A stretch of DNA of 61,981 nucleotides, counting the filler, from Rhabdomonas costata (lineage: Eukaryota), in NCBI GenBank assembly GCA_019059605.1. It is 24 parts of 24 records of this genome, joined end to end, with 100 filler letters (N's around TTAATTAATTAA, not from the genome) between each part and the next. Parts side by side here need not be neighbours in the genome. Positions count along the whole stretch, not along the records: positions 5,174 to 7,659 come from JAHMHO010003191.1; 23 more parts are not named here. The stretch is one strand, 5' to 3'. Position 1 is the first letter of the stretch. Each line of letters begins with the position of its first letter. The translations under genes were made by a program, and so were the position numbers. Under the pieces are notes generated by a model. That model had not been told where the DNA came from. It did no database searches and saw only the letters and a program-made list of their open reading frames with translations. Below, in pieces: positions 1 through 59,808 of this stretch.

Positions 1-704
1 GGGTTGGTATCCCCATCTTTGGAGCTCCAATTTTGGTGGAGTTAAGTTAGGCACCGCCAAAACATGTTCCCCTCACCCGCCGTATATCTTAGGTGTCTCC
101 ACGAAGTGCAACAGAACGTTTGCATTCCTGCTGCTGCACGGATGTTGTGCAACTTTTTGCTTTCTCTAGGCTTTTCCTACCTACAGCCCCAAAAGTTGCA
201 GGACAGGATCCCACGCATCTGGCACTTGATCACGGGCCTTCTCCCTCATAATCCCGGGATATTTTACTGTCAATGGAATGTAACCAGGTTGAGCGGGATC
301 TCAAAAATGAGAAGAGAAAGACGGAAGACAAGCACCGGGAGGCAACCGAACGTGCAAAACAACCGTGGTTTAGGTGGTTGTGAGGAGAAGGAGGAGAGGG
401 GAGATACTGGAAAGATCACAAACATACACGCATACGAGCCGCACACATGGAACCACAAAAAATCGGGATTGCCACTCGCCGATGCACAACCCAAGACGAA
501 AATTCAAGCCTAGAAGGCAGAGCATGCTGAGGGTGGCTCTACACATAACCACGGGAGATATGACATAATAGAACATGATAGAAAAAAGGAAAAGGCAGGA
601 TGCGACCCACAACCCTGGCGGAGCACCATGTACACGACCCACTCAGTGCGCAGAACGTAATCCAAGCCTCATGAGTGTTCACACGACACTTCCTCCGGTG
701 GTCC

Positions 705-2477
705 TCAAGGCTTGTTCTCACTCGAAGGGGCGGGGGCCGCGGGGCGGGCACTGGGCTGGGCCTCGTCCTGCTCCTTCAGAAGCCTCCACTGCTCACGGTT
801 GGCCTTCACGTTGTCCAGCAGGGGCTGCAAGCTAGAATTCCATCCCGCCAGCATGGTGTAGTGGGGAAGGGCCACGAAGTCGATGAACCCCATCTGGTCC
901 TTCGCCAGCTTGCTCTTGGCCCGGTCAAACATCGCGGCCACCTGAAGGCCCTTCTCCGCCTCGAGGTCACCCTGGCGGTGGAACTCCTCCGTGACAGCAA
1001 CTCCCCACTGCCGCGCCAACGGAAAGGGCTTCGCCACGTTGGATAGGTCCGCGGTGTGAATGATCATCTTCATCAGCAGCTCCTGCAGCGACATCGACGG
1101 CAAAAGTTGCACAGCAATGCACGCTTGAAAAGCAACGCGATTCAACACCAAGAAGCTAAAGCGGACGACCACAGGGAATGAACACAGAAAGCGTGACATA
1201 TGTCACGACGCAAACTTCTAGTCACGTCCCTATCAATAAAAGGCTGCCGCTGCAAAAATCGTGCCAACCAGTCCTGCCGCAGTGCTTTGATCGGTATTGA
1301 AGGGCATGCCTTCATATTGGGGGCCTCAGGGTTTGCCGCGGCTTCCTTGAACTGCGCCAGCAGGTCATTGTGCTTAGCCATGTCCGTGGCCAGGATGCAG
1401 TCAATCATCGTCTTGAAGGCACGGTGGTTTTGGTCCTTGGTCAAGCCTTGGAAGATGTTATACGGGGCCATGCCCAGCAGCTCCACTGCCAGCTTCGAGT
1501 GGTGCACCTCTAGCACGGACTGCGTCCCCGCAGCGGAGGACAGGATCCCCATCGGGGTGTCCGCACGGAGGTGGAAGCTGTTGTTCAGCCCCATGTGGTC
1601 CAGGTCGTGGCAAATCGCGGTGACCAGTAGCACAAACTTGTCCAGGTTATCCAGTATCCCTGCAACACAAAACCGCCAAAGTTTGAAGGGGGCAGATATT
1701 GTCCGCGTCACATGCAAATCGGTGGCGTTTGTGAGCTGATTTTTGACTTTCACCTGTGATCTCTTTCAAGGTGACGCGTGTAGCAGCAAGCTTACCCTGC
1801 ACTGAATGTGCATCTGGGCTCCCATTATTATCAGCACCGCGCTCAACAATGTTCGACCAAGCCAGAAGTGCTAACCAGGTCTTTACGCCCAAAGATGAAC
1901 TGCCAAAAGTCCAAATGCCACAGAACCTACCAAGATTATCCACCAGCTTCATCAGCACGAACACGGTCTGTGTCGCGTCCACCGCGTGGTAGAAGTTGTG
2001 GTAGGGCACAGAGCGGTACAGCTTCATCGCGGAAATCAAGAAGCGGTACAGCGTCTCCTCGTCCACCTTGAAGTTCTCGAACGCCCCAACATTCCGGAAC
2101 AGCTCCACCAGCAGCGGAATCAGCTTCTGCTGCATCTCTGGGTCGGGGGAGAGCTTGTACTCGAAGATGTCGAAGTTGATGGTCTTCACGCGATCCAGCT
2201 CGTCCACGGTGACGTTCAGACTCATGTACATCTTCACGGTATTGCCATCCACGAGACCCATCTTCGCCAGCAAAGGATTCGCGCGGCGCCGGCTCGAGTC
2301 TCCACCTTGTCCAGCCTGCAGCAGCTGCATCGCGTCGTGGTTGGACTGCAAGACAAACTGGTACAGCTTCGTGTTCTCCAGGCTGATGGCGGCGAACATG
2401 CAGAAGTCTGTCAGCAACTGCTCGTCGTCCCTCGTGAAGCATGCCGTGCCGTCCGTCTTGTTCACCGCTTGAATCAC
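705..2477 (-). CDS. GAF-domain class I 3',5'-cyclic nucleotide phosphodiesterase, 5'-truncated, 3 exons (~2477-1931, 1659-1310, 1082-705)
   Basis: GAF tail (QAVNK...FTRDDEQLL), then PDEase motifs YHNFYHAVD, HDLDHMGLNNSF, LEVHH, ILATDMAKH, HTADLSNVAKP, EEFHRQGD and DQMGFIDF. Intron 1930-1660 is GT-AG and intron 1309-1083 is GC-AG; both are phase-compatible. Confidence 0.95.
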
Positions 2478-2487
2478 ACCAACCCAC

Positions 2488-2587
2488 NNNNNNNNNNNNN
2501 NNNNNNNNNNNNNNNNNNNNNNNNNNNNNNNTTAATTAATTAANNNNNNNNNNNNNNNNNNNNNNNNNNNNNNNNNNNNNNNNNNNN
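2488..2587. other. Artificial contig-joining spacer (first of 23)
   Basis: 44 N + TTAATTAATTAA (stops in all six frames) + 44 N. Identical 100-bp spacers start at 2488, 5074, 7660, 10245, 12887, 15472, 18057, 20643, 23227, 25813, 28398, 30983, 33568, 36151, 38734, 41316, 43901, 46484, 49065, 51649, 54231, 56813 and 59401. Contigs between them are 2481-2488 bp (one is 2542), i.e. roughly length-sorted. Confidence 0.98.
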
Positions 2588-2627
2588 TTGTGTGTGTGGC
2601 CTCACGCCTGCTCCCCTTTCTGCAGAC

Positions 2628-4944
<2,317 letters not shown>

Positions 4945-5785
4945 CTGTTCCGGTTCCCAAGGAAGCCCCCAACCGTTCCGTTGAAAGGAATATAACGAGG
5001 GGAGGGGAGGGGTATTTCCGCAACCTCAGGGTGTGCAAGAAAAAGCCGTTTCTTCGGAAGGAGACCAAAAAACNNNNNNNNNNNNNNNNNNNNNNNNNNN
5101 NNNNNNNNNNNNNNNNNTTAATTAATTAANNNNNNNNNNNNNNNNNNNNNNNNNNNNNNNNNNNNNNNNNNNNTCTGGGGGGTTTGAATTGACTGTTTTA
5201 TTGCCTGTTTATATATCGACTGTTTTGTTTATTTGGATGCCGATTATTTATGTTTAAAAGACTTGAATCATTTAATGGTGTGAAGCGTTTAACGGCCCAC
5301 TCCCACAAGTACAGCAGGCCCATGTTTGCAAATCCGAATGTTTGCAAACCTATTCAAAGCCCGACTACGTCGCCTGAAATTCTTGAGCTCGGGGACAACT
5401 CGTTCAGGAATAGCGAGATATTGGGAAGAACATTTGCGTTATCAGCCACGTGCTTTTTTCTTCGATTTTCCCTAATGGAAAAGTGATAAGCCGGAAAACA
5501 GAGGATTTCTGACCACATCAATGCCCCAGCTCCGGCCATAATCCACTGTCATGGCGAGCCTGTACTCGTCCACTTGGCGACAAACAAGCCGATCAAAGTT
5601 TACTTTGCAATGTTGCCAGTTCAATATCATAGCAGCCCTTGCTAACGACATGTATCGGAACAATAAGGATTTTGACTGAGGTGAAGAATATCCAGAGAAC
5701 ACAGTCAGGAGAGGAGCACAAGCTCGCACTGAACCTTGTCGCCAAAGGCCAACAAAGGTGCAGGTGGGATTCAACAAAGCACACG

Positions 5786-6260
5786 GCTTGCAGCTGTAAA
5801 GTGGCTGCAGGTATGATGCCAAGGTAAGAGCTCAGATGCGCTGAATTTGAACTGTCCGAGGAACACAGCATACAAAGCAGAGGTGAGGTGAGGTGACAAA
5901 CCACTCCTAAGGGTGGCCTGAAGAACATAACGGGGAACAAAGCGATAAAAGGAAGGAAGAGTAACGAAGCAAACCGATGACGGAACCGAGGGGCGAGGAA
6001 GAAAAGTACTCCGTCACACGCAAGAGAGGCCCCCGCACAAAGCTTGCAGCTGTGAAGCTGGTGCAGGGAGAATGTGCCAGGGTAGGAGCTCAGACGCGCT
6101 GAAATTGGACTATCCTGGGCACGCAAGCAAAGGTGAACATAAACCACTGCAAAGGGTGGCGTGAAACACAATAACAAACGGTGAGAGAGGGAAGAGGAGC
6201 GAAGCAAAGGAAAGAGGGAAGCCAGGAGCTGTACCGAGGGAGAACAGCACACCGTCCGAC
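5786..6260. repeat. Diverged ~250-bp tandem duplication downstream of the Met-rich gene
   Basis: GCTTGCAGCTGT...GAGCTCAGAYGCGCTGAA...AAACCACT..AAGGGTGGC.TGAA...GAAGAG...CGAAGCAAA occurs from 5786 and again from 6042. Confidence 0.75.
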
Positions 6261-6282
6261 CTCTTCGCCATTGATGCATCGC

Positions 6283-6714
6283 CTAAAATCCGATCATGCC
6301 GCCCTTTCCCATCCCTCCCATGCCCATTCTCATGGCCCCCATCGCTATATCCATCTCCCCCAGGGCCATCTCCCGCTGCCCCATGGCGATGTCCCCCACG
6401 CCCATCGCCATCTCGCGCTGCCCGAAACCCACCTCTTGGCGCCCCATGGCCATCTCTCGGCGCGCCATGGCCATCTCCATCTGCCCCAGGGCGTAGTTCC
6501 CCTTGGCCATGTCCCGCGCCGCTTGGGCCATCTCGGCCTGCCCCAAGGCCAGCTCCGCCTGCCCCATGACCATCTCCCTCTGCCCGATCGCGACTTCGGC
6601 GCGGCCCATTCCCATCTCTGCTGCGCCGAAGTTCATCTCTCGTTCGCCCATTCCCATCTGGGCCATGCCCATGCCGCCATGGTGGTGGTGGTGATGCCCG
6701 TGGTGCCCAAACAT
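6283..6714 (-). CDS. Intronless 143-aa His-tract, Met/Gly-rich heptad-repeat protein of unknown function
   Basis: ATG at 6714, TAG at 6283. Strong third-position GC bias like the other exons. Sequence is MFGHHGHHHHHH followed by 16 heptads of consensus G-x-x-[ED]-[MVLI]-[AG]-[MLFI]. Confidence 0.85.
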   Translation of the reverse strand: MFGHHGHHHHHHGGMGMAQMGMGEREMNFGAAEMGMGRAEVAIGQREMVMGQAELALGQAEMAQAARDMAKGNYALGQMEMAMARREMAMGRQEVGFGQREMAMGVGDIAMGQREMALGEMDIAMGAMRMGMGGMGKGGMIGF

Positions 6715-8225
6715 TCTCACAATGTAAGAAAATGGAGTGAGGCCTGCCAAACAACAGCATGGGTGTGACACTCTCCCAGGTTGGTGAAAACCAGTTCAGA
6801 GGATGCAAAGTTGAAGGGTGACAAAAATTAAAAATTTGTGAACACTGCTTATAATTTTTAGGTGGCTCTATCAGTTTCGTGGCAATGGGCGGCTACAAGC
6901 GAATTGTGCGGAATGGATGAGCAAATTCAAGAGGATTCAAGCAGCTAGCGGGGGGTAGTATCCGTTTTAGGAGAGGGGTGAGCGTAATTTCTGGGAGAGG
7001 TTGTTGATCTCGAAGGGTGTGATAGAGCAATGAATGAGTTCTATGGACATCTTATTATGGTATTTGTCTGAAAGGGAGTCAGAAGGCGTCGCAAGTGTCC
7101 CCATGCCAATTGTGAACTGTGCGCAGATGGAAATGTTGAGCTGTGGCTGCACAACCGGACGAATCCGATGTGAAATCATCAGAATCTCAAAAGAAACCAT
7201 ATGTGTGTAAAAACTTCTGACACAACTCCGATTCACACACAAGTCCAGTGTTAATAGTCCGGCGCACACAACAGCCGCACAGATGCAAAGAGAAGAGGAG
7301 AAGGTGAGTGCGGGAAAACAGTACAGTTTGAAGGAGGAAACACTAACAAAAGCTTTCAAGCAGTCACTGAAGGAACACACTGGTGAAACAAGACAACAGC
7401 AGCAATGTATAACTGTGTGTAAGTATTCTCCCGATTACGGGGAAGGTTGGATGCACACTGCAAAAAAAAAAGAAAAGGACGAAACCAGACCCTGTCATCC
7501 TGGGGGTAATTTGAGAAACATTACCTGTGCGCATGTGCGTCGTCCGCTGTTGAGCAATGGCAGAAACGGCAGAAGCAAAAAACCAAACAATAAAAGAGAA
7601 AAGTGACAGACAATTGCAAAAGAAGAGATGCCGCTAAATTTGAGTAGTACAAAACAACANNNNNNNNNNNNNNNNNNNNNNNNNNNNNNNNNNNNNNNNN
7701 NNNTTAATTAATTAANNNNNNNNNNNNNNNNNNNNNNNNNNNNNNNNNNNNNNNNNNNNGTTGGTTGGTCATGTTAACTTTTGGACGTTCATCGATTTGC
7801 GGGTTGGCGAAAGCGAAAAATCGGTCGATGTGGAGATTGGACAGAGCAGGCAGAAAGGCAGAAGATGGACCGTTTGGTTTGCTTTCTTACTGTAGCCATT
7901 TTTCTGGCCGCACACAATGTCACATTGCCGTGAGTTGCAGTACTTGCTGCTTCTGCTGCTGCTAGTTTCGTTTTGGGGGGTTTATGGGGGCAAGGATGGA
8001 TTTCAGCGATGTGGGCTCAGATTGTCAAAGGCTATTATCCAATTGGTGCACATGGCTGACGGAACCACGACGGAGAGTTATGGAAGCTGGCAAATAAGGT
8101 GTCCGTATACTCAGCATCACCTGCGGATCCGAACAGGCAGCACAGGACTGAAACCGCGTGCCTGAATGGCGCGAGACAACGCCAGAACAAAAGCTGGCGT
8201 TCAAGCTCTGCGCAAATCGCCGCGC

Positions 8226-15898: not shown

Positions 15899-17553
15899 CG
15901 TGTGGGACTCCCCGCAGGCCACCCCAAGGATGGCCCGCCCGCACAGCACCTCCAGCCGGGAGGGGCTTGGGGTGTTCTCGTCGTGGCCCAGCTGCCCGTC
16001 AATGCCCAAGCCAAAGGTGAAGAGCTGGTGCCCTCCCCCCCCCCCCGAAATCACCACTCATGATGACATTCCCTCCCAGCTTTGGTCTGCCTCCTTGACT
16101 GTCTTTCTCACGTCCTGTTCTGTGCGCCGTGAACTTGCTTGGTTGGCGAAGGTGGCTGGCGAAGGTGCATTCTCCGCTAAGGCTATTGAAGGTTGACCAG
16201 AAGGCTGTTTGGAGCCAGCTCGAATTCCGCGACCCCCTCCGGGTCAGGGGCCACAATAAAGCACCAGCGCTGTGTCTGGGCCTCCTCAGGCACGGCTTTC
16301 GTTCACAGCCTGAGACATGCCGTATAATCGTTTTATCTTGACATACACGCATCTGTATGTGATTGCACCGTCTCTGAGCAAGGGGCCTTCCCTTTCCGCC
16401 GATAATTACTTGCCATGGCATTTCAATATGCCTTGTCCCAAACCGTCTTTCTTCGTTTTCAGTTTCGCCTCATTTCCTGCAACTTGACGGAAGCCTTGAT
16501 CTTGGACGGTCGGAAGGGAAGCAAGCGTGTGCGTGGGAGGGGGGAGAGGGGTCGGGCTCTTGCCTTTTGTCCAGACACAGGTGTGGAAGCCCCCGGCAGC
16601 AATTCCAACCACCGCGTACCCCCGCAGCGCGGTGACCAGCATTGGCTCGGTGCAGTCCTTGCGGTGCGCGTGGCCGAGCTGGCCGTAGTATCCTGACCCA
16701 CAGCTGTACACCTCATCGTCTGAAAAAAAAACCAGGGCCCCGTAGGAAAAATGGGAACAAGGAAAGGGATCTCTATTCTTTTGAACGGAAGTGAACTTGC
16801 TGGGTTATCAACCATGGAAAAGCGAGTGCCGTTTTCAAAATGACTTTTTTTTTGTAAAATCAGTGAAAATTCAACAAGCGTGCCGGACCAGGTAAATCGG
16901 CGTTCCATTGATAACACTAGAGTCAGATGAAAGTGGGCTTAGCCTCCCTATTCTACACACTCTTTTCCCGCGCCCACCAACTTAGCTTTTTTGCCCCCCC
17001 CCCTCATTTTTGGGAAAAGGATTTTCTTTCTTGTTAATTAGTATTTTCCTGCATCACACAATCCGAAGACCAAAGCGAACCGAAATGAAGGTTGTTATTT
17101 TAAAACACTTAACCTCAACCCATGATTAAAAATAATCTGGCATAACCTGGAGGCGTGTCAGCCTTGTATATTTGCACGAGGGGTAGACAGCTGCGCATGG
17201 ATGGTGTGGGGTACAGGTCCACTCCACAACACCTCAACCGGTCAAAGCCCTCACCCCGGGTCACACCGACAACGGCTCGGAGAAGGGAAAAAAAACAACC
17301 CTAACCCTAACCCAAGCCCTTTTTTGTGGGAGCGCAAACAAAGCATCTGGCAAAGGGCACAACGTGGAAGCGTCGGGGGGGGGGTGCAGGCGGCTGCCCT
17401 CTGTGCAGAATAGGGTGTGGTAGTGCCCGCAGCAGGCACGGGTCACCACCTTGCCAGCCAAGGCTTGGACCCGGGTTGGGGAGAGCTTCTGCTCCTGATC
17501 GCCGTGGCCCAGCTGCCCGTACTGCGAGCACCCGAAGCTGTACACCTCGCCCC
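15899..17553 (-). CDS. RCC1-repeat protein, internal fragment; exons 17553-17398, 16719-16564, 16032-15899
   Basis: Three RCC1 blades (VYSFGCSQYGQLGHG…ACCGHYHT; VYSCGSGYYGQLGH…AAGGFHT; LFTFGLGIDGQLGH…ACGESHT), one per exon. Both internal introns are GC-AG. Confidence 0.92.
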
Positions 17554-20500
17554 CTGCGCGCACAGTTGAGCACAAAGGTGAGCTGGCGGACGTGAGCGAG
17601 TCCAGCCGACATCAACTGCTTGAGACGCTTGCGAAGTAGCGGCAGTTCAGTGATAGGAATTTGTTCACAAAGCAGCCTGAAGCCCGTTGTCTCTTCTTAC
17701 TCGCATTTACAATAATGGAACTACGACCACCTCCCTTCACTAGCGATCGATCTGTCAGCTCTGTCAGCGCCGGCTTACTGTGATGTTTCGCTTACCGCAA
17801 TACACGCGGTAGCGGCATTGCCCAGCAAAGGCACCGACTGCATCGCACGTGAGTGGTAGCTCAATGCGCAGTTGTCTACTTCTCGTGTTCTCACTATGCC
17901 TACTGCTTCTGCTATGCCTTTGTGCCCGAAGCGAGCCCTTGCAAGTACGTATATTGAAGAGCAAAGCTGCACAGCGAATTATTAAACGGTGCCTGCGTGA
18001 ATGGTGAGGAACCTTGCGGCATTTGACCCAGGTTCTCGAGAACGTACACACAACACNNNNNNNNNNNNNNNNNNNNNNNNNNNNNNNNNNNNNNNNNNNN
18101 TTAATTAATTAANNNNNNNNNNNNNNNNNNNNNNNNNNNNNNNNNNNNNNNNNNNNGTGGTTTTGGGGATTCCAAAAAAGACGAAGATGGTTCAACCAAT
18201 CACTGCAGCAACCAAAAACAGGAGCATGTTGTGAATGACATACTCTTAGATCATCACCAAAATAATGCCTCCAGGCGGCACAAGCCACAGAGCAATGGCG
18301 GTCTTCGCGTGGTCTCACACATTCTGCAAAACGCTGGTTCTACGTTTGCTCTTTTTTCGGCAGCGGTTGATCCACCGCATCGAAAAACGAAGCTAATGAA
18401 CGCTTAAACAAAATTAGTGGAAATGGGTGACATCGCGAAGCGCAAAGCACAGTTCAGGCGTGAAACGTTCAGTAGAAAGTGAGTAGTGCAACTGAAAAAC
18501 ACAAAGGCTCTAACTGCAGTGGTGAAGCGACGCATTGCGGTGGCAGACGTGAAGCAACCTTTCCAAAGTGAAGGTCTTCTCAACAGAGAAAACCAAGATA
18601 AAAGCTGTGTACCCATGGTAAAAGAAACCATCAAGAGTGGTGATGCAAAAAACACTGACTTAATGGCGACAAGCCGCCAATAGTATTATGGAGACTGCGT
18701 ATGAGGCTAATTCGTCAAAACACTTTGGCACAGTTTGCAAATTCCAAGCAAAAAGCGTCTACGTTCAAAGTGACTAAGACAAAGCAGGCCTAGTGGATTT
18801 GTATATACAAAACGCCTCATAAACGCTTTCTGTCCGGTGATTTGTGTCAGAATTATCTTTCACCATTGGGAGGTTTTGGTGCCTTTGGGGGGCTCTCAGC
18901 GGATTGTTTTCGACAGAACACACATCTTATTTGCATAAAACAAAACCACTCCCAACTGGGCCAGACACCTGGCTCTTGACCTAAAGCACTCAAAGATCAA
19001 TTGGCAAGTCATAATCCAGAAAGCCCGTCATTGCTGGACATATAATACATAAAACAACTTGAAATGAAATGAAATCTCTGAAGCATTCCTCACGAAAACC
19101 ATCCTCTAGTGATAATTCAGATCAAATTTATCATTGTTTCACCAACGCAATTCTCCTTGGAGCGGTGTGCTGTAGAGTGTCCTTGTGCTCAAAATTATGC
19201 ACATCTGTTTAGTTGGTGTTGGAGCTTTGGCGGTGCTGCTGTCCGTGCTGAAGGCCAATTCGTGCGTTGCGGTATCGACCTCAATCAACATTTGTCGCTA
19301 CACACACTTGGGGCACAATAACCAAGCGTCCAGTCAACGGCAAGCGCAATGCGCCCAACGCACACTTGGAGCACTTGAAAAGGATGAATTTTTCACTTTC
19401 AGAGTATGGGAAGGAAGAAAAAACTGGTGTACTATAAGCCTTCCGATGCATAATGTGCATAAGTAAAAAGTAAAGGACAATGAGCTGTAGCGAGGCGGCA
19501 GCATGAATAACAACCAGGATTGTAAGCCTTACGGAAACAGGAGCTGACTTTCCAGGACACGTCTCGGTACCGCGCAGCAGCTACCGGTCCAATTCCTGAG
19601 CCACTGCACTGGAGAGGCGCCTCCACAGCGGTTAAGATGAGATTAAAAGCTTCTCCACGAGCACTTTTTTTTGGGCAGAACCAGGATGGCCTTCCTGGCA
19701 CGGTAACCATTCACCTGTATTCTCCGCACCTTTTACGACTAACCGCATACGAAGCCTGGTGCACTTACGCGCCGCGTCGGAATCAGCTTTCCCGTCTCGG
19801 GCTGGGCTGCCTCTGCGCCAGGGGTGACATCCGCTGTGGAAAATGTATGGTGCAGAGTGTTCACCACTGACACACCAACATGCCTGGGAGCGGTTTCGCT
19901 GGGTTCCGGCACAAAAAAGTTGGAACGAGCCGAGAGCCATAGGGTAGGAGTGGCTCGAGGCGGTTCGTAATACCAGCGCCGTTGTAATAATACCACTTAT
20001 GGCGCGCATACTGGCCTCACGTTCGGTGCTAAATTCCGTGTGTGTATTTGGATGTGAATTTTGCACTCGGTGTGTTTCTGAGTTCTGTACGGTGGTTCTT
20101 GGCTTAGGAAGTAGCGGGTATTTTGGAGAGCTGAATTTACTGGTCGAACAAAACGTTTTCATTTTGGTCGCGTAGTCCAGCGTTTTGCTTACGTTCGATT
20201 TAACGGAGCTCTGCTCCCACAGCTTTTTAAAACGTGGTTAACGCAGGTTGTATACATGTTGGTGTTATTCGTACAAATAAAGCACTTTCACACTTTTCTT
20301 TGTCTTTACCACTTCAGTTTTTTGTCTGGCATCTAACGTGGTTGTACGGCTTCCAACGAGTCATTTCATTCTGCTGAATGAACAACAAGGAGAGACTCCA
20401 CATACGTGTTTCCACTTGTAGCTATGCGCCGTTGATTTTTGTGTGCGCGTGATGGCCTAGCATACTCTGCAGTTTTCCCATACAGCCAAAAAGCAAACTG

Positions 20501-21395: not shown

Positions 21396-23119
21396 CCAGG
21401 AGCGAACCTTCCAGGTTCGGGGTCCAGAATCCGCCGAACATTCTCGTCCTCCTCAGAGCCAGAGTCATCGTCACGCTCACCAGCTTGCCGGGGAAGCCGA
21501 GCGGCCAAGTCCTGTGAAAACGACATTCCCACCCACCCTCACGCAGGCCTTGCATCTAGCATTCTGGTGTACTAGTGCGGGGTGGAGGGCGCAAATTGAA
21601 AATCTTGTCTTGAAAAATTTGTCAGCACAACTTTTCAATCTCAGGTCTCCGAAGTAACAGGAAAAATCGAGTCATGGTTCCGTGATTTGACATTACTTCC
21701 ACCTTCCTTCATGAAGCCCCCTCAAATAGAGGTCCCTGGGGGGGGTTGAAAAACCTGAGCGAGCTGATCCAGGTAAGCTGCGGGCATGTTTGCATCGGGA
21801 GACCTTGCGACCAGTTTTGCGAGCCTGCGTCGAATGATGGGGTACTCCAAGATTTGCGAGACCTTCGGCCGCTTGTTGGGCTCCTTCTGCAGCAGTTTGG
21901 CTGAAAGGAAAAGCGAAAGCCTGGCCACCCAGCGCACACAAAGGTAAACTCTGTCGTCTCAGCGGTCTCCGTACTCAATACAAGTGCATTTAAGTTCAAG
22001 TCCCAGTCCAAATTCAATCTACGCAAGTCATGCGGCCTCACCGCGATCTCGAAGAAAAAAGGGCGAGGATCACGAAATTAGGAGGGCAATTGAACGGCAG
22101 CCAAGACTTCGTTCAAGATGAAAAACCACGTGGTGTGGTGGAGCTGAGCTACGTTGGAAGCGTGTGCAGGAGCAGAGGGGGCATACAAACGATGGCTCGA
22201 AGCTCGCTGGAATACATCAGGGGAGGGGGATCGTAGATCACCCGAAGAATTTTGTACATCAACCCCTTCATATCTGCGCGACCCACAAACATGACGAACG
22301 AATAAAGGTTGACCGGAAAACTGCAGAAATGCAGAGCTATCTGACTCTGCGATTGTGAAGTACGGATGTTGAACCTGTTGCATTGAAGGGATGTTTGAGA
22401 GACATCAGCTCGTACAAAACAACCCCAAGGGCCCAGCAGTCGCTCATGTTGTTGTACGGCTTCTCCTGCAGAAAAGAAAGCAACGTAGGCGACAAAACTC
22501 GCTGAACTTCACGACGGGAAGGAAGGGGCTGGACACACACCTGGACAAGTTCGGGGCTGAGGTAGTAGGGAGTTCCGACAAAGGTGTGCGCGCAGTCGCA
22601 GGTGTTCTGCAGGAACCTGGAGATTCCGAAGTCTCCGACCTGAGAAGTGGGGGAAGCGTGAAGAACTCGCAATAAGGAAGAGGGCTTCGAAATTTGGAAG
22701 GATAAAGAAGAACAATTCTATTCCCAAGCAAAAACCTTCACAACGCCTTCATCAGTGAGGAAGATGTTTTGACTCTGCGAAAAAGCATGAACACCTCACT
22801 CAGCAAACGCGCATCCAAGTTGAGACAAGGGGTTCTCCCCTACTCACTTCCTCACTGATCCGAATGAAGGCCAATGTTTTTTTTGCGGACAGGAAACTAT
22901 TTTGCGCCAAACAACGTTTATAGAGACCCCCCTAGAATCACTGGAGTGCGAATGGGGGTGGGTCTGGGTGGGGACGAACCTTAATGTCTCGGTGAAGCAC
23001 CCGTTTCTGGTGACAGTACTCAACGGCGAGACAAATCTGAAGGAACCAGTCCAAGATCTGTTCTTCGGAGAAGTGCTTTCCCTTCGTCTTGGCCTGCTTG
23101 ACCTTGTCCGACAGGTCAC
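21396..23119 (-). CDS. NIMA-related (NEK) Ser/Thr kinase fragment; exons 23119-22980, 22774-22736, 22639-22541, 22465-22375, 22273-22187, 21900-21755, 21511-21396
   Basis: [70 protein letters not shown]. Six phase-compatible GT-AG introns. Confidence 0.95.
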
Positions 23120-51768: not shown

Positions 51769-53737
51769 GCCTGGCCAAGCACCCCACGGCGAAGGATGTG
51801 CAGGACAAGGCCACAGCCTACGCCGACGCCTTCATGAAGGCCTACCGCTCTTCAAGCCCTGAGAGTTCGGACAGCTTGCAGCTGGGGGAGAACCTGAGCT
51901 GGGACGGCGTGGCCGCGGTGCACACCTATACATTAGAAACGGAGATATACTCCAAGGTTTTTTGGCCCCACACAAACCTGCACTCTGTAGCGGTTGCCTC
52001 TGTTTTGTTTTTCTCTTTTTGTGAAAGATGGAGAGATTTTTACGCTGACGGTGACCAGCCCTGTATGGTCTGCTCACCCCTGTCATGCCCTATATGTATG
52101 CATGTATGCATGTTTCGTTCTTGGCAAGACTAGAGCAATGTATGCACCTCGGCCCTTGACAGGCGCCGTTTCAGCCGTTTGGGTTTGTTGCTTGCGACAG
52201 TTGGCTTCCGATGGGATGAAAGTCTTTGAGGAGCTCGGCAATGATTCGCTCCGCACTCCCCTAAGGGGACCGATTCCTCTGGACAGGATACCTCATTTGT
52301 CATTTTGCAGATGAACGCCGCTCTGCGAGGGAAGGACAAGGCTGCACTGAAGCGGTGGCAGAGCCTTGCACTGCACTTGGACGCGGGCCTGCAGGAGCTG
52401 CCCCCGGTGGAGACCCGGGGGCATCCCCTGTACCGTGGCATTACGGCCAAAGTGGACCTGGTATGTCCCCCACACATCTTTACCACCATTTTTCATGGCT
52501 TCACCACTGCATAGTCAAGGAAGACCAATGTTTTTGGGGTCAAGTTTTCAGACGGCATCGTCGCTTCATTCCCATTTCTGAGAAAACCTCTGAGGATGGG
52601 CGAATCAGCCTGGCCTTCTTTCTTCAGCGCCGTTATACCCGTGAGCAACACCATTCTGACTGTCATCACCTCAAGAGATCCTGACCCCTTTTGGCAGAGG
52701 TCAGCCAGTCACCGTTTGCGAACACGCGCAATAATACCGAGGCCAAAACACACATCTACTCTGAACTTTTGAGCTGAGTGAACCAAACACCAACACTGTG
52801 CACCGGATGGATCCGGTCAGGCCAGAGGGCCTCCCCTCGAACTATGCTGTTCCCCCCACACTCTCCTGTGCTCCTCTCCTTTTTGTATCTGTGCAGCTGT
52901 TGTGTGCGCCGGACTCTTAACACTAGACAATGTTTGTACATTTTGTTTTGAATAGACGTGACCTGTCGTTGTTTTTTAAATCTACTCGAAAACTTTGGGA
53001 TGAGTGATGGTGGGCACTGGCCTAAGAGAGCTATACCCCCTCCTCCGGTCCTCTTTGCTTTCCCTTTTCAGGCGCAGTACCAAGAGGGGCGCTACCTGGT
53101 GTGGCCCGCCTTCAGCAGCACCACCATGGACGCCAAGGTGGCGAAGGACTTCCTGAAGGGCACGAAGGACGGCCACGCCGCCCGAGGGACGCTGTTCATG
53201 GTGAACCCTCTGAAAGGGGGGCGAAGCCGAGCCCGCGCAATTAGCAGGCTCTCTGCCTTTGGGAAGGAGCAGGTCCGCTTTGCGCCCACATTTCTTGGGA
53301 GGCTTTTTTCGAGGGCCATCGCGAGGTGCCCATCTGTTCTCAGTGTGCCTCACCCATTCGCCTGCATGCACTCGCGCGCTGTGCCTTTCCATTGCGGGCA
53401 GCATGTCAGGTGTGCTGGCCCTCCCTTCCATTACCCTCCCTTCTCTACTTTTGAAGAAACCTCGAGTCTGATGGCACACCTTTTCCCCATGTTTAACAGT
53501 TTAACGTTCATCAACTCATGGCGCACGAGATATTACCGAACGGTGCTGCTGGGCACCTGTTAGGTGGTTGGCATACCCTTCGCTTTTTTTTGGTCAACTT
53601 TTCCGTTTCCTTATTTTCGTTTGACGCAGGAGGTGCTCTTCCGCAACGACACTTGGTTTAAGGTGTCGCAGCGGTTGGGTCCAGCTGCCAAGAAGTTCCT
53701 GGAGAGCCAGCTGGGTCGCTCCCTGGACAACGTCGAG
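51769..53737 (+). CDS. NAD+:arginine ADP-ribosyltransferase-type (R-S-E, ARTC-like) domain; exons 51769-51956, 52311-52460, 53072-53272, 53630-53737
   Basis: AVHTYTLE..IYSKMNAALR, LYRG, WPAFSSTT, GTLF, SAFGKEQEVLF (ExE). Three phase-0 GT-AG introns. Confidence 0.9.
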
Positions 53738-57878: not shown

Positions 57879-59009
57879 CTACGGTGCGATAATGGTTTCC
57901 AAGCTGTCCCCTAATTTGCGAGCGATCCACTGCTCGCGGTTCCGTCGCACAGCCTGGCTCCAGGGCTCCAGCTCTGGGCGGCACGCGGCGACCAAGTCAA
58001 AAAACTTCACCCCAATGGCGTCCAGGAACCCAACTTGCTCATCGGGAAGTGTCACGCCCCCAAAACGGTCAAAGGCGGAACCACCAAGTATTTCCAGGCC
58101 CTCAGCCCTGTCCTGAAAAAAGGCACAAAAGAAACTGTGAAAACACCTATTCACATAAGTATACCCACCAAATACACGACTTCATCATGGGCATTGCTTG
58201 CGACTCGTGCGTGGTTTCCTCTTCCGCGAGAGGGGGGGGGGATTAATTGTAAGACTGAATGAGAGGGGAGCAGCGCGGTGGGTCCTACCATGTCGCCTTG
58301 GAGGAAGAACTCCTCGCGGATCGCCGCCCCCCACTTCTCGCTGATCGCAAATGGTCTGGTGAGGCTGGAGAGGTCCGCAGCCTTGATAAGAAGCTGCATC
58401 AGCACAAGCCGGCCCTCGGAGTTCAAAGAAGAGGACAGTGGGGAGGCCTCTGGCGAAGTGTTGGAGCTGGAAAAGTCCGACGACGCGGTAAACCCGCCAA
58501 GCACTGAAGAGAAGGTTGGGCAAAGCTCTGCATGGCGAGCCATGTCCGTCGCCATGATGCACCGAAACAGGATCTCGTGTGCCCACGCCGCCTAAAGCAA
58601 GCAGAGGCAAAAGGGAACTTGAGTTCGGATGGCCCCACAACAGCAAACACTGCGGGAATCACGGGCGTGGTTTGCCCCAACGCAAGTGACCTCTGCACCT
58701 TTCATAAGTAATGGGACTATAGTTGCCGTCTGAAGATTCAAGTGGCACTAATTCGCATAGCTTCTCGGATAAAGGATCATCAATTGTAGAAACTGTGCAT
58801 GTTGACAACCCAGCAGCAGCACAGAGTCAAACCCCCGCGACTGGCGGGAGGGGGGGGGAGTGTCTGACCTGGGTCTGGGTCAGCGAATGGAAGGGGTTGG
58901 TCAGCGGGTCGGAGAGAATGCTGGCCGCCACCGCACAGTGATAGTGCTCCATCACCGAGGTAAGCCCAGAGACAGAACACAGGATGCCCAGAGGGGTGCG
59001 GCGCTTCAG
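57879..59009 (-). CDS. Second class I cyclic nucleotide phosphodiesterase, 3' part; exons 59009-58869, 58591-58289, 58112-57879
   Basis: TPLGIL…SVMEHYH, IMATDMARH, IKAADLSSLTRPF, EEFFLQGD, EQVGFLD. Phase-0 GT-AG introns. Confidence 0.92.
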
Positions 59010-59808
59010 CTGATCTGATTTGGCGGTGGTGGAGGTGGAGGTGGAGGTATCGGGTCAGTGTTAGCTAATCTACGCAACGGGCTTTGTTGCGAGAAAGTGC
59101 GGCGTACACCTGTCAGCATGCTGGCCGTTTTGAATTGGAAACCTTCAGAGATGATCAACTGGTCTTTTGTTGTTGTTATTACCACTGCAGAACCTGAGTT
59201 GGACAGGTTTCCAGTCCCAGACATAAAAATGCCATGTATTCGCCATCGTCAACACAAGGAGTCAGCCATGCAAACCCGGTAGCAACGCGTTACAAAATCA
59301 GATACAAAAGTAGAAGTGCAACAGACACGGCTCAGCAGCAATCGTTCCCATTAAAAAATGACGACAACCCTTGAAGCCCTAACCCACTCTACCCCACAAA
59401 NNNNNNNNNNNNNNNNNNNNNNNNNNNNNNNNNNNNNNNNNNNNTTAATTAATTAANNNNNNNNNNNNNNNNNNNNNNNNNNNNNNNNNNNNNNNNNNNN
59501 TGTGTTGGGTGTGGGTGGTTGTGGGTTGGTTCATTCGCAATTCGGATATGTATATATACGTTTGCAGCTTCACATCTGCTTTCGATTGGGCGAGCGGCCT
59601 TGCCCACCCCAGGATTTTTCATTTTTCATCTCAGACGAAAACACACACACACAGCGCTGAAACCCACCGTTGACCAACCCAACCCTACTCAAACCATTCC
59701 CAGTCATTGATGCAAACATTTCACTATAATTTATAGTTCCGTTTGTGTTCTGAATCTGCTCTGCTCTTTCGTGCACAAACATACTCTTTTTTGCGCATAT
59801 GCACGCAG

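Follow-up and report, generated by a model that had tools for sequence, protein, structure and literature searches.

Mets motifs (MxM/MxxM) are found in the Ctr1 copper transporters, and CusF carries an M-x-M Cu(I) site. The YadA-head repeat (Hep_Hag, PF05658), found in the trimeric autotransporter adhesins of bacteria and in fibre proteins related to them, is a unit of seven residues in which position 1 is Gly, position 4 polar, positions 5 and 7 hydrophobic (φ) and position 6 Ala. The grass ice-binding protein, of about 118 amino acids, consists of 7-residue units that end in Gly and are arranged two per turn. SilE, according to PMC5008109, is a disordered protein of 143 amino acids whose folding is induced when its His and Met residues bind Ag+, by way of repeated HxxM/MxxH motifs in which His is interleaved. 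We compare here with these systems an open reading frame (ORF) of Rhabdomonas costata, whose predicted product, P0001, is a repeat protein rich in Met that carries a His tract.

The window, that is the whole stretch of DNA analysed (61,981 nucleotides), is composed of 24 contigs of about 2.48 kb and of 23 linkers (2488-2587, 5074-5173, 7660-7759, then every ~2.58 kb), each 100 nt long and made of 44 N, a 12-nt sequence with stops in all frames and 44 N. As the pieces were joined artificially, neighbourhood across linkers is meaningless, and the real context of the ORF is its own contig, JAHMHO010003191.1 (5174-7659, 2486 nt, bounded by the linkers at 5074-5173 and 7660-7759), on which it is the only exon-like stretch. 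At least nine of the ten first letters are G/T in 19 of the 24 contigs, and at least nine of the ten last ones are A/C in 18 of the 24, against a background of 3.3%; these biased ends extend over ~10-30 nt (for example 5174-5190, 7760-7772 and 59501-59530). G/T starts and A/C ends fit the degenerate stretch of ten K in a primer for whole-genome amplification quoted in PMC10781638, and this indicates that the contigs derive from amplified DNA. Telomeres were considered as the cause of the G/T starts and rejected because the polarity is wrong, 5' ends being G/T-rich on both strands. A phosphodiesterase (PDE) gene that runs off the end of contig 1 speaks against telomeres too, and against whole chromosomes, so that the contigs are genome fragments. 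The case shows that concatenated contigs, linkers and remnants of amplification primers can pass for genomic context.

The PDE fragment of contig 1 (756-2483, minus strand) corresponds to a cyclic-nucleotide phosphodiesterase and is 50-58% identical to GAF-PDE proteins, some of them named from Trypanosoma; its best relatives (53-58% identity) include such Trypanosoma proteins and transcriptome entries, the gene being most similar to enzymes of euglenozoans, which points to a eukaryotic and possibly euglenozoan source. Its exon matches are separated by a gap of ~240 nt, and the boundary of the alignment shows no obvious GT donor. A second, different cyclic-nucleotide phosphodiesterase fragment is present at 58289-59009 (minus). 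RCC1-repeat exons (16409-16804 and 17264-17611, minus) and a protein-kinase exon (22340-22717, minus) are found on other contigs and served only as references for codon usage. Rfam and tRNA scans of the whole window gave no match. A dispersed repeat of 95 nt is shared, at 81% identity and on opposite strands, by 7243-7334 and 52834-52928, which places the ORF contig in the same genome as the contig holding the second copy. The earlier note had described the ORF as intronless in an intron-rich genome: the ORF is indeed uninterrupted and the PDE gene contains at least one gap, but the contrast with the genome is weakened by the window being an artificial join.

The ORF lies on the minus strand at 6283-6714 and comprises 143 codons from its ATG, with a TAG stop at 6283-6285. 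Its translation agrees exactly with what had been described before (143 amino acids, 28 Met, 8 His at the N-terminus, and no Ser, Thr, Pro, Cys or Trp), the most frequent residues being G30, M28, A21, E13, R10, Q9 and H8. Met thus represents 19.6% of P0001, and 16 acidic residues stand against 12 basic ones. After an N-terminal MFG comes the His tract HHGHHHHHH (residues 4-12; 6679-6705, minus), encoded mostly by CAC codons, which holds all eight His of the protein. The repeat region is composed of heptads 1-8 (residues 16-71; 6502-6669, minus), a 5-residue unit, GNYAL (residues 72-76; 6487-6501, minus), whose length is a multiple of 3 nt, and heptads 9-16 (residues 77-132; 6319-6486, minus), a parse identical to the one listed earlier. 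It is followed by a Gly/Met-rich C-terminal tail, GGMGKGGMIGF (residues 133-143; 6286-6318, minus).

The general form of the 16 heptads, the 5-residue unit being set apart, is G-[QR]-x-E-M-A-M. Position 1 is Gly in 14 units and Ala in two, position 4 is Glu in 11 and Asp in three, position 5 is Met in 11 and Val, Ile or Leu in the five others, position 6 is Ala in ten and Gly in four, and position 7 is Met in nine and Phe, Leu or Ile in five. At the DNA level, Tandem Repeats Finder reports a 21-nt period at 6337-6585 (12.1 copies, 63% matches, score 99). The 62 kb of the window contain no other such array. The array in the ORF is bounded by the ATG and the non-repeated His tract at one end and by the stop at the other. 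GNYAL reads best as a heptad that would have lost two residues and kept the polar-φ-A-φ ending; it aligns to ..NYALG of a YadA-head protein. As for the 8+8 symmetry formerly emphasized, the position of the break is real, but in-register comparison of one half with the other gives 60% identity, as compared to 59% for any pair of units. An ancient duplication of eight units is rejected on this ground, and the symmetry adds no information, the halves being no more alike than any two units.

Searches for relatives of P0001 agree with the earlier statement that no known family could be recognised. In Pfam, hmmscan at E<=10 listed GAGA_bind (E 0.34) and LigXa_C (E 6.3) and nothing else, YadA_head being absent; NCBIfam gave adhesin matches of at most 17.8 bits, as compared to cut-offs of 600-3000 (800 for the match at 17.8 bits), and no family. 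Word-indexed searches for homologues of near and longer lengths found none, the ESM Atlas gave no usable match, scans of metagenomes by protein pattern and by exact DNA found no relative, and no paralogue is present on the other 23 contigs of the window. phmmer, run against 1.84 billion representative proteins, produced 1506 matches at E<=0.001, the best at 1.5e-36. Among the 150 listed of these 1506, identities range from 22 to 40%, the proteins are mostly long and rich in G/A/S/T/N, and Met never exceeds 4.3%, versus 19.6% in P0001. Judged by sequence comparison, P0001 has no close homologue or orthologue-grade relative among these 1.84 billion proteins and appears at present as a well-formed orphan ORF. 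Three unrelated database proteins among the phmmer matches, P0025, P0029 and P0108, display near-perfect tandem heptads (GRIELAL, GQEDLAM and GLEEMGE types) that are close to the ORF consensus; they have the look of GC-rich minisatellites that expanded recently or are translated.

Our preferred reading, to which we give a probability of roughly 0.3, is that P0001 would be a real, lineage-restricted orphan protein acting as a metal-binding "sponge", with folding induced by binding. The ORF would be a single-exon protist gene, and its product a soluble protein of 143 amino acids serving as a Cys-free metal buffer. Borderline ions (Ni, Zn, Cu(II)) could be held by the His tract and soft ones (Cu(I), Ag(I)) by the thioethers of the ten M-x-M pairs, and Glu/Asp at heptad position 4 could act as counter-charges; the chain, as a helix or as a beta-roll, would become ordered only upon binding or self-association. 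We infer expression and folding behaviour as well as metal binding, the latter from composition alone. P0001 contains ten M-x-M and three M-x-x-M motifs. The single HxxM (position 12) and the single MxxH (position 1) border on the His tract and neither falls within the repeats, His not being interleaved with Met. For a chemistry that combines a terminal His cluster, M-x-M pairs, a regular acidic position and no thiols, metal sponges such as SilE are the proteins that are best documented. As HxxM/MxxH motifs are nearly absent, P0001 may act like SilE and yet not belong to the SilE family.

This reading requires that the ORF be translated; an alternative that we consider just as probable is that there is no gene at all. 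The locus would then be a GC-rich 21-nt minisatellite beside a (CAC)n microsatellite, non-coding and giving no protein, and several frames would be open since the consensus contains no stop-prone triplets. Three of the six frames are open across the array, as expected under this explanation, and under neutral substitution 7-23% of simulated arrays keep the Met frame open, so that openness is weak evidence of coding. The locus is rich in repeats, a 250-nt tandem duplication abutting the ORF; the protein, metagenome and contig searches yielded no homologue or paralogue; P0025 and P0029, whose near-perfect heptads are similar, may be translated satellites; and the excess of entropy at third codon positions is not significant (permutation p 0.097).

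Divergence between the repeat units points the other way. When the units are compared with one another, the Met frame shows a pN/pS of 0.62, versus 0.82-1.32 in the other five frames, and this value is rarely reached under neutrality: in star-tree simulations conditioned on an open frame, pN/pS was 0.62 or less in none of 400 runs with uniform composition, none of 400 with the composition of the ORF and none of 400 with kappa 2, in 5 of 400 with kappa 4 and in 8 of 400 with kappa 8, all these repeat-based statistics amounting to a resampling of a single 7-codon consensus. Nor is the reading frame interrupted at any point, as all 16 units are exactly 21 nt long and the odd unit 15 nt; units diverge from each other by ~41% without any frame-breaking indel, whereas the adjacent 250-nt duplication has many. 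A non-coding minisatellite would also have to explain why an ATG with its non-repeat His tract and a stop codon sit exactly at the two edges of the array, and why there is no second array of this sort in 62 kb. The earlier claim that selection acts on the protein is upheld as to the frame-specific pN/pS and its rarity under neutrality, but only at the level of a plausible proposal.

Composition and codon usage complete this picture. GC at the three codon positions is 0.69/0.43/0.85 in the ORF, which is exon-like when compared to the Pfam-confirmed exons of the window (0.54-0.65/0.30-0.51/0.73-0.85), while the flanks of the ORF are flat at ~0.5. Synonymous codon choice in the ORF scores +0.28 bit per codon against a reference of 517 confirmed codons; an antisense frame containing a stop scores +0.30, that is, as good as the ORF. 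The A/T skew of the contig strand agrees with that of minus-strand genes elsewhere in the window. The two other fully open frames were considered and rejected: the Arg/Asp/Gly-rich sense frame has a pN/pS of 1.03 and a codon score of -0.48, and the His/Leu/Pro-rich antisense frame a pN/pS of 1.32 and a codon score of -0.22. On these features of the DNA, coding is likely, and we estimate at about two in three the chance that the ORF is a real gene.

On the 3' side, directly after the stop, are two diverged tandem copies of ~250 nt (5779-6034 and 6035-6282, minus), which are 69% identical and whose alignment needs several gaps, mostly not multiples of three. They are non-coding, as indicated by GC at codon positions and by frame-breaking indels; they sit on the pyrimidine-rich strand and could be a 3' UTR repeat or a satellite. 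Readthrough of the TAG into an in-frame open frame of 229 codons (5593-6282, minus) was rejected: GC by codon position is flat there (0.52/0.48/0.53), the strand is pyrimidine-rich with 15% A, and the frame spans the two 250-nt copies with their frame-breaking indels. The TAG and a single codon are all that lies between this frame and the ORF; it has no Pfam match and, on a strand poor in A, has probably stayed open by chance. All three stop codons are used at the ends of long ORFs in the window (TGA 26, TAA 15, TAG 12). On the 5' side, the ATG has an A at -3 and is preceded, one base before, by a pyrimidine tract followed by AG (6716-6741, minus), a pattern that could represent a splice or trans-splice acceptor. 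An out-of-frame ATG, 46 nt upstream of the ORF (6758-6760, minus), begins the alternative frame that is rich in Arg/Asp/Gly; for translation to bypass this ATG, the transcript would have to start, or be spliced, downstream of 6758-6760. About 750 nt upstream, the stretch 7459-7524 (minus, ~65 nt) has an intron-like pattern, GTAATG followed by a long T-tract and GCAG.

The earlier note had proposed that P0001 folds as an antiparallel helical hairpin, and our models do not support this. AlphaFold2 run without alignment predicts one continuous helix over residues 18-132 (mean pLDDT 84, pTM 0.40), which passes through GNYAL with no turn at the central break; Foldseek searches with this single-helix model gave no PDB match. 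Packing of such a hairpin is not favoured either, as the hydrophobic signal at the coiled-coil harmonic of 102.9 degrees is weak. Kyte-Doolittle power in the two halves is 0.39 and 0.29 at this angle, as compared to 0.88 and 1.27 at 51.4 degrees and to 0.84 and 0.87 at 154.3 degrees, a helical heptad comparator of LxxG type reaching 0.86 at 102.9 degrees. P0001 is not an amphipathic coiled coil. Its residues are strong helix formers by propensity, and we give roughly half of the weight to a helix or a disorder-to-order transition and a third to a beta-roll.

The second alternative bears on this latter fold. P0001 could be a left-handed beta-roll similar to the YadA head, with two heptads per turn, about eight turns and a core of Met, Ile, Leu and Phe, and hence a rigid self-associating or surface-binding module instead of a helical metal sponge; we consider this unlikely. 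Its hydrophobic spectrum resembles that of a YadA stretch, with peaks at 51 and 154 degrees and not at 103. The strong phmmer scores are consistent with such a roll, as seven of the ten matches that were scanned for domains, out of the 150 listed, are YadA_head (PF05658) proteins, several of which also carry Peptidase_S74 or C1q domains. In BLASTP, the heptads of P0001 are in register with a YadA-head protein over more than 110 residues (E 2e-14), and the best PDB sequence match is the head of BpaC (1.2e-5). Order within the heptad is essential to this likeness: against seven YadA-head proteins, the real sequence averages 91.9 bits and its full shuffles 0, while 25 fixed permutations within the heptad average 6.3 bits (maximum 38.1) and cyclic rotations give 76-94. 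The match is lost on permutation within the heptad and is therefore not just an effect of composition or of 7-residue periodicity. What P0001 and the YadA head have in common in sequence seems to be the order G-x-x-polar-φ-A-φ, and ancestry or convergence could each account for it.

When AlphaFold2 is given an alignment of 32 YadA-type rows, P0001 is modelled with short strands at a mean pLDDT of 55.8 (72-81 for residues 80-130, below 50 for most of residues 1-72), and the model matches the head of BoaA (TM 0.55, E 3.5e-4), an outcome steered by the alignment. This strand model of low pLDDT has to be weighed against the helix at pLDDT 84 predicted without alignment, and helix is also what the residues favour. 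Furthermore, the Pfam YadA_head model is silent at E<=10 and NCBIfam adhesins stay far below their cut-offs, position 4 is occupied by Glu/Asp and not by Ser/Thr/Asn, and neither a signal peptide, a stalk nor a membrane anchor is present in this ORF of a eukaryotic host.

A third alternative, quite unlikely in our opinion, keeps the Met residues at the centre and changes their role: P0001 would be a sacrificial sink for oxidants that methionine sulfoxide reductases regenerate, or a self-associating low-complexity domain switched by oxidation. Known Met-rich prion-like domains are rich in Q/N/S/Y and are not strict charged heptads, which counts against this role, and the His tract is left unexplained by it. 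A Met content of 19.6% without any Cys, in a low-complexity sequence based on repeats, would suit a redox element, and Met-rich low-complexity domains regulated by oxidation are reported to exist (PMC8394241, PMC9312190). The sequence has nevertheless no feature that separates a redox role from metal binding.

A combination of the metal-binding and beta-roll proposals is also conceivable, and we regard it as a long shot. P0001 would be a eukaryotic, Cys-free, YadA-type beta-roll that folds or polymerises only with metal bound. A core stack of ~30 Met, Leu, Ile and Phe side chains and a Glu ladder on the turns could hold, respectively, soft ions on thioethers and, together with the His tract, harder ions, by analogy with Ca-dependent RTX rolls. 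If true, this would be a metal-gated solenoid whose chemistry has no described precedent, and no YadA-like repeat would have been known before beyond bacterial and viral surface fibres. Finally, we hold it very improbable that the ORF belongs to a larger gene, as one exon or a fragment, or stems from an error of amplification or assembly, and that the 143-amino-acid protein does not exist as read: the contig is only 2.5 kb long and comes from amplified DNA, to judge by the G/T starts and A/C ends of the 24 contigs, an acceptor-like AG lies just before the ATG and the GT...AG stretch at 7459-7524 is intron-like, but the contig has no other exon-like stretch, the frame has its own ATG and stop, and the dispersed repeat places the contig in the same genome.

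Returning to P0001 as an orphan metal-binding protein, its expression would make it an unusually clean natural heptad protein, with ~20% Met, a built-in His tract and no close relatives among 1.84 billion proteins. It could then be a model for thioether-only ligands, or for the control of folding by Met oxidation. The ORF also bears on whether the YadA-type heptad G-x-x-polar-φ-A-φ is a convergent structural solution.

Among known systems, the more distant comparisons are with the grass ice-binding roll and with designed helical barrels. Two of the YadA-type matches also fit the family of the grass ice-binding beta-roll (PF21300, LbR_Ice_bind), whose size class is that of P0001; P0001 itself does not match this family, and its surface would be charged (Glu, Arg, Gln) in contrast to a flat ice-binding face. 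Designed alpha-helical barrels (8qae, sc-apCC-6; 7bim and 7a1t, CC-Type2-(GgLaId)4) have E-φ-A-x-G segments that align with P0001 (phmmer E 4.4e-5 for 8qae, partly via its His tag, and 0.47-0.61 for 7a1t/7bim, E-values of short peptides being near chance), and the long helix predicted for P0001 without alignment is in keeping with them. In P0001, however, the second hydrophobic residue sits one heptad position away from its place in these designs, which results in the weak signal at 102.9 degrees.

With Ctr1 and CusF, P0001 seems to share, as far as the presence of motifs goes, MxM/MxxM clusters that would be thioether-only ligands of soft metals without Cys. In those systems the motifs belong to the ectodomain of a transporter or to a small chaperone of beta-barrel fold, whereas in P0001 they would form a free-standing repeat and occur once per heptad; the Ctr1 family moreover needs transmembrane helices, which are absent from P0001. 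The YadA head appears similar in its 7-residue unit with Gly1, polar 4, φ5, Ala6 and φ7, which can be aligned in register along the whole repeat region of P0001 (Gly1, φ5, Ala6 and φ7 fitting seven Pfam-confirmed members), and it tolerates units short by a few residues. P0001 differs from it by scoring below the gathering score of the Pfam model (25 bits), without a match, by having Glu or Asp at position 4 in 14 of 16 units where YadA heads have Ser, Thr or Asn, and by its Met at positions 5 and 7. It differs from a trimeric autotransporter adhesin as a whole in that it has no signal peptide, stalk/neck or C-terminal anchor, nor any other Pfam or NCBIfam domain.

SilE and PcoE, the periplasmic Ag(I)/Cu(I) sponges, resemble P0001 in being small, Cys-free, rich in His and Met and of low stable structure (PMC5008109). 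They differ by their repeated motifs, P0001 having one HxxM, one MxxH, all its His terminal and no export signal; SilE for its part has no heptad regularity, and Pfam and PDB searches reveal no sequence similarity between SilE/PcoE and P0001. All these comparisons indicate that P0001, if it is a real gene product, would be a variant close both to Met/His metal binders and to YadA-type heptads, and a member of neither.
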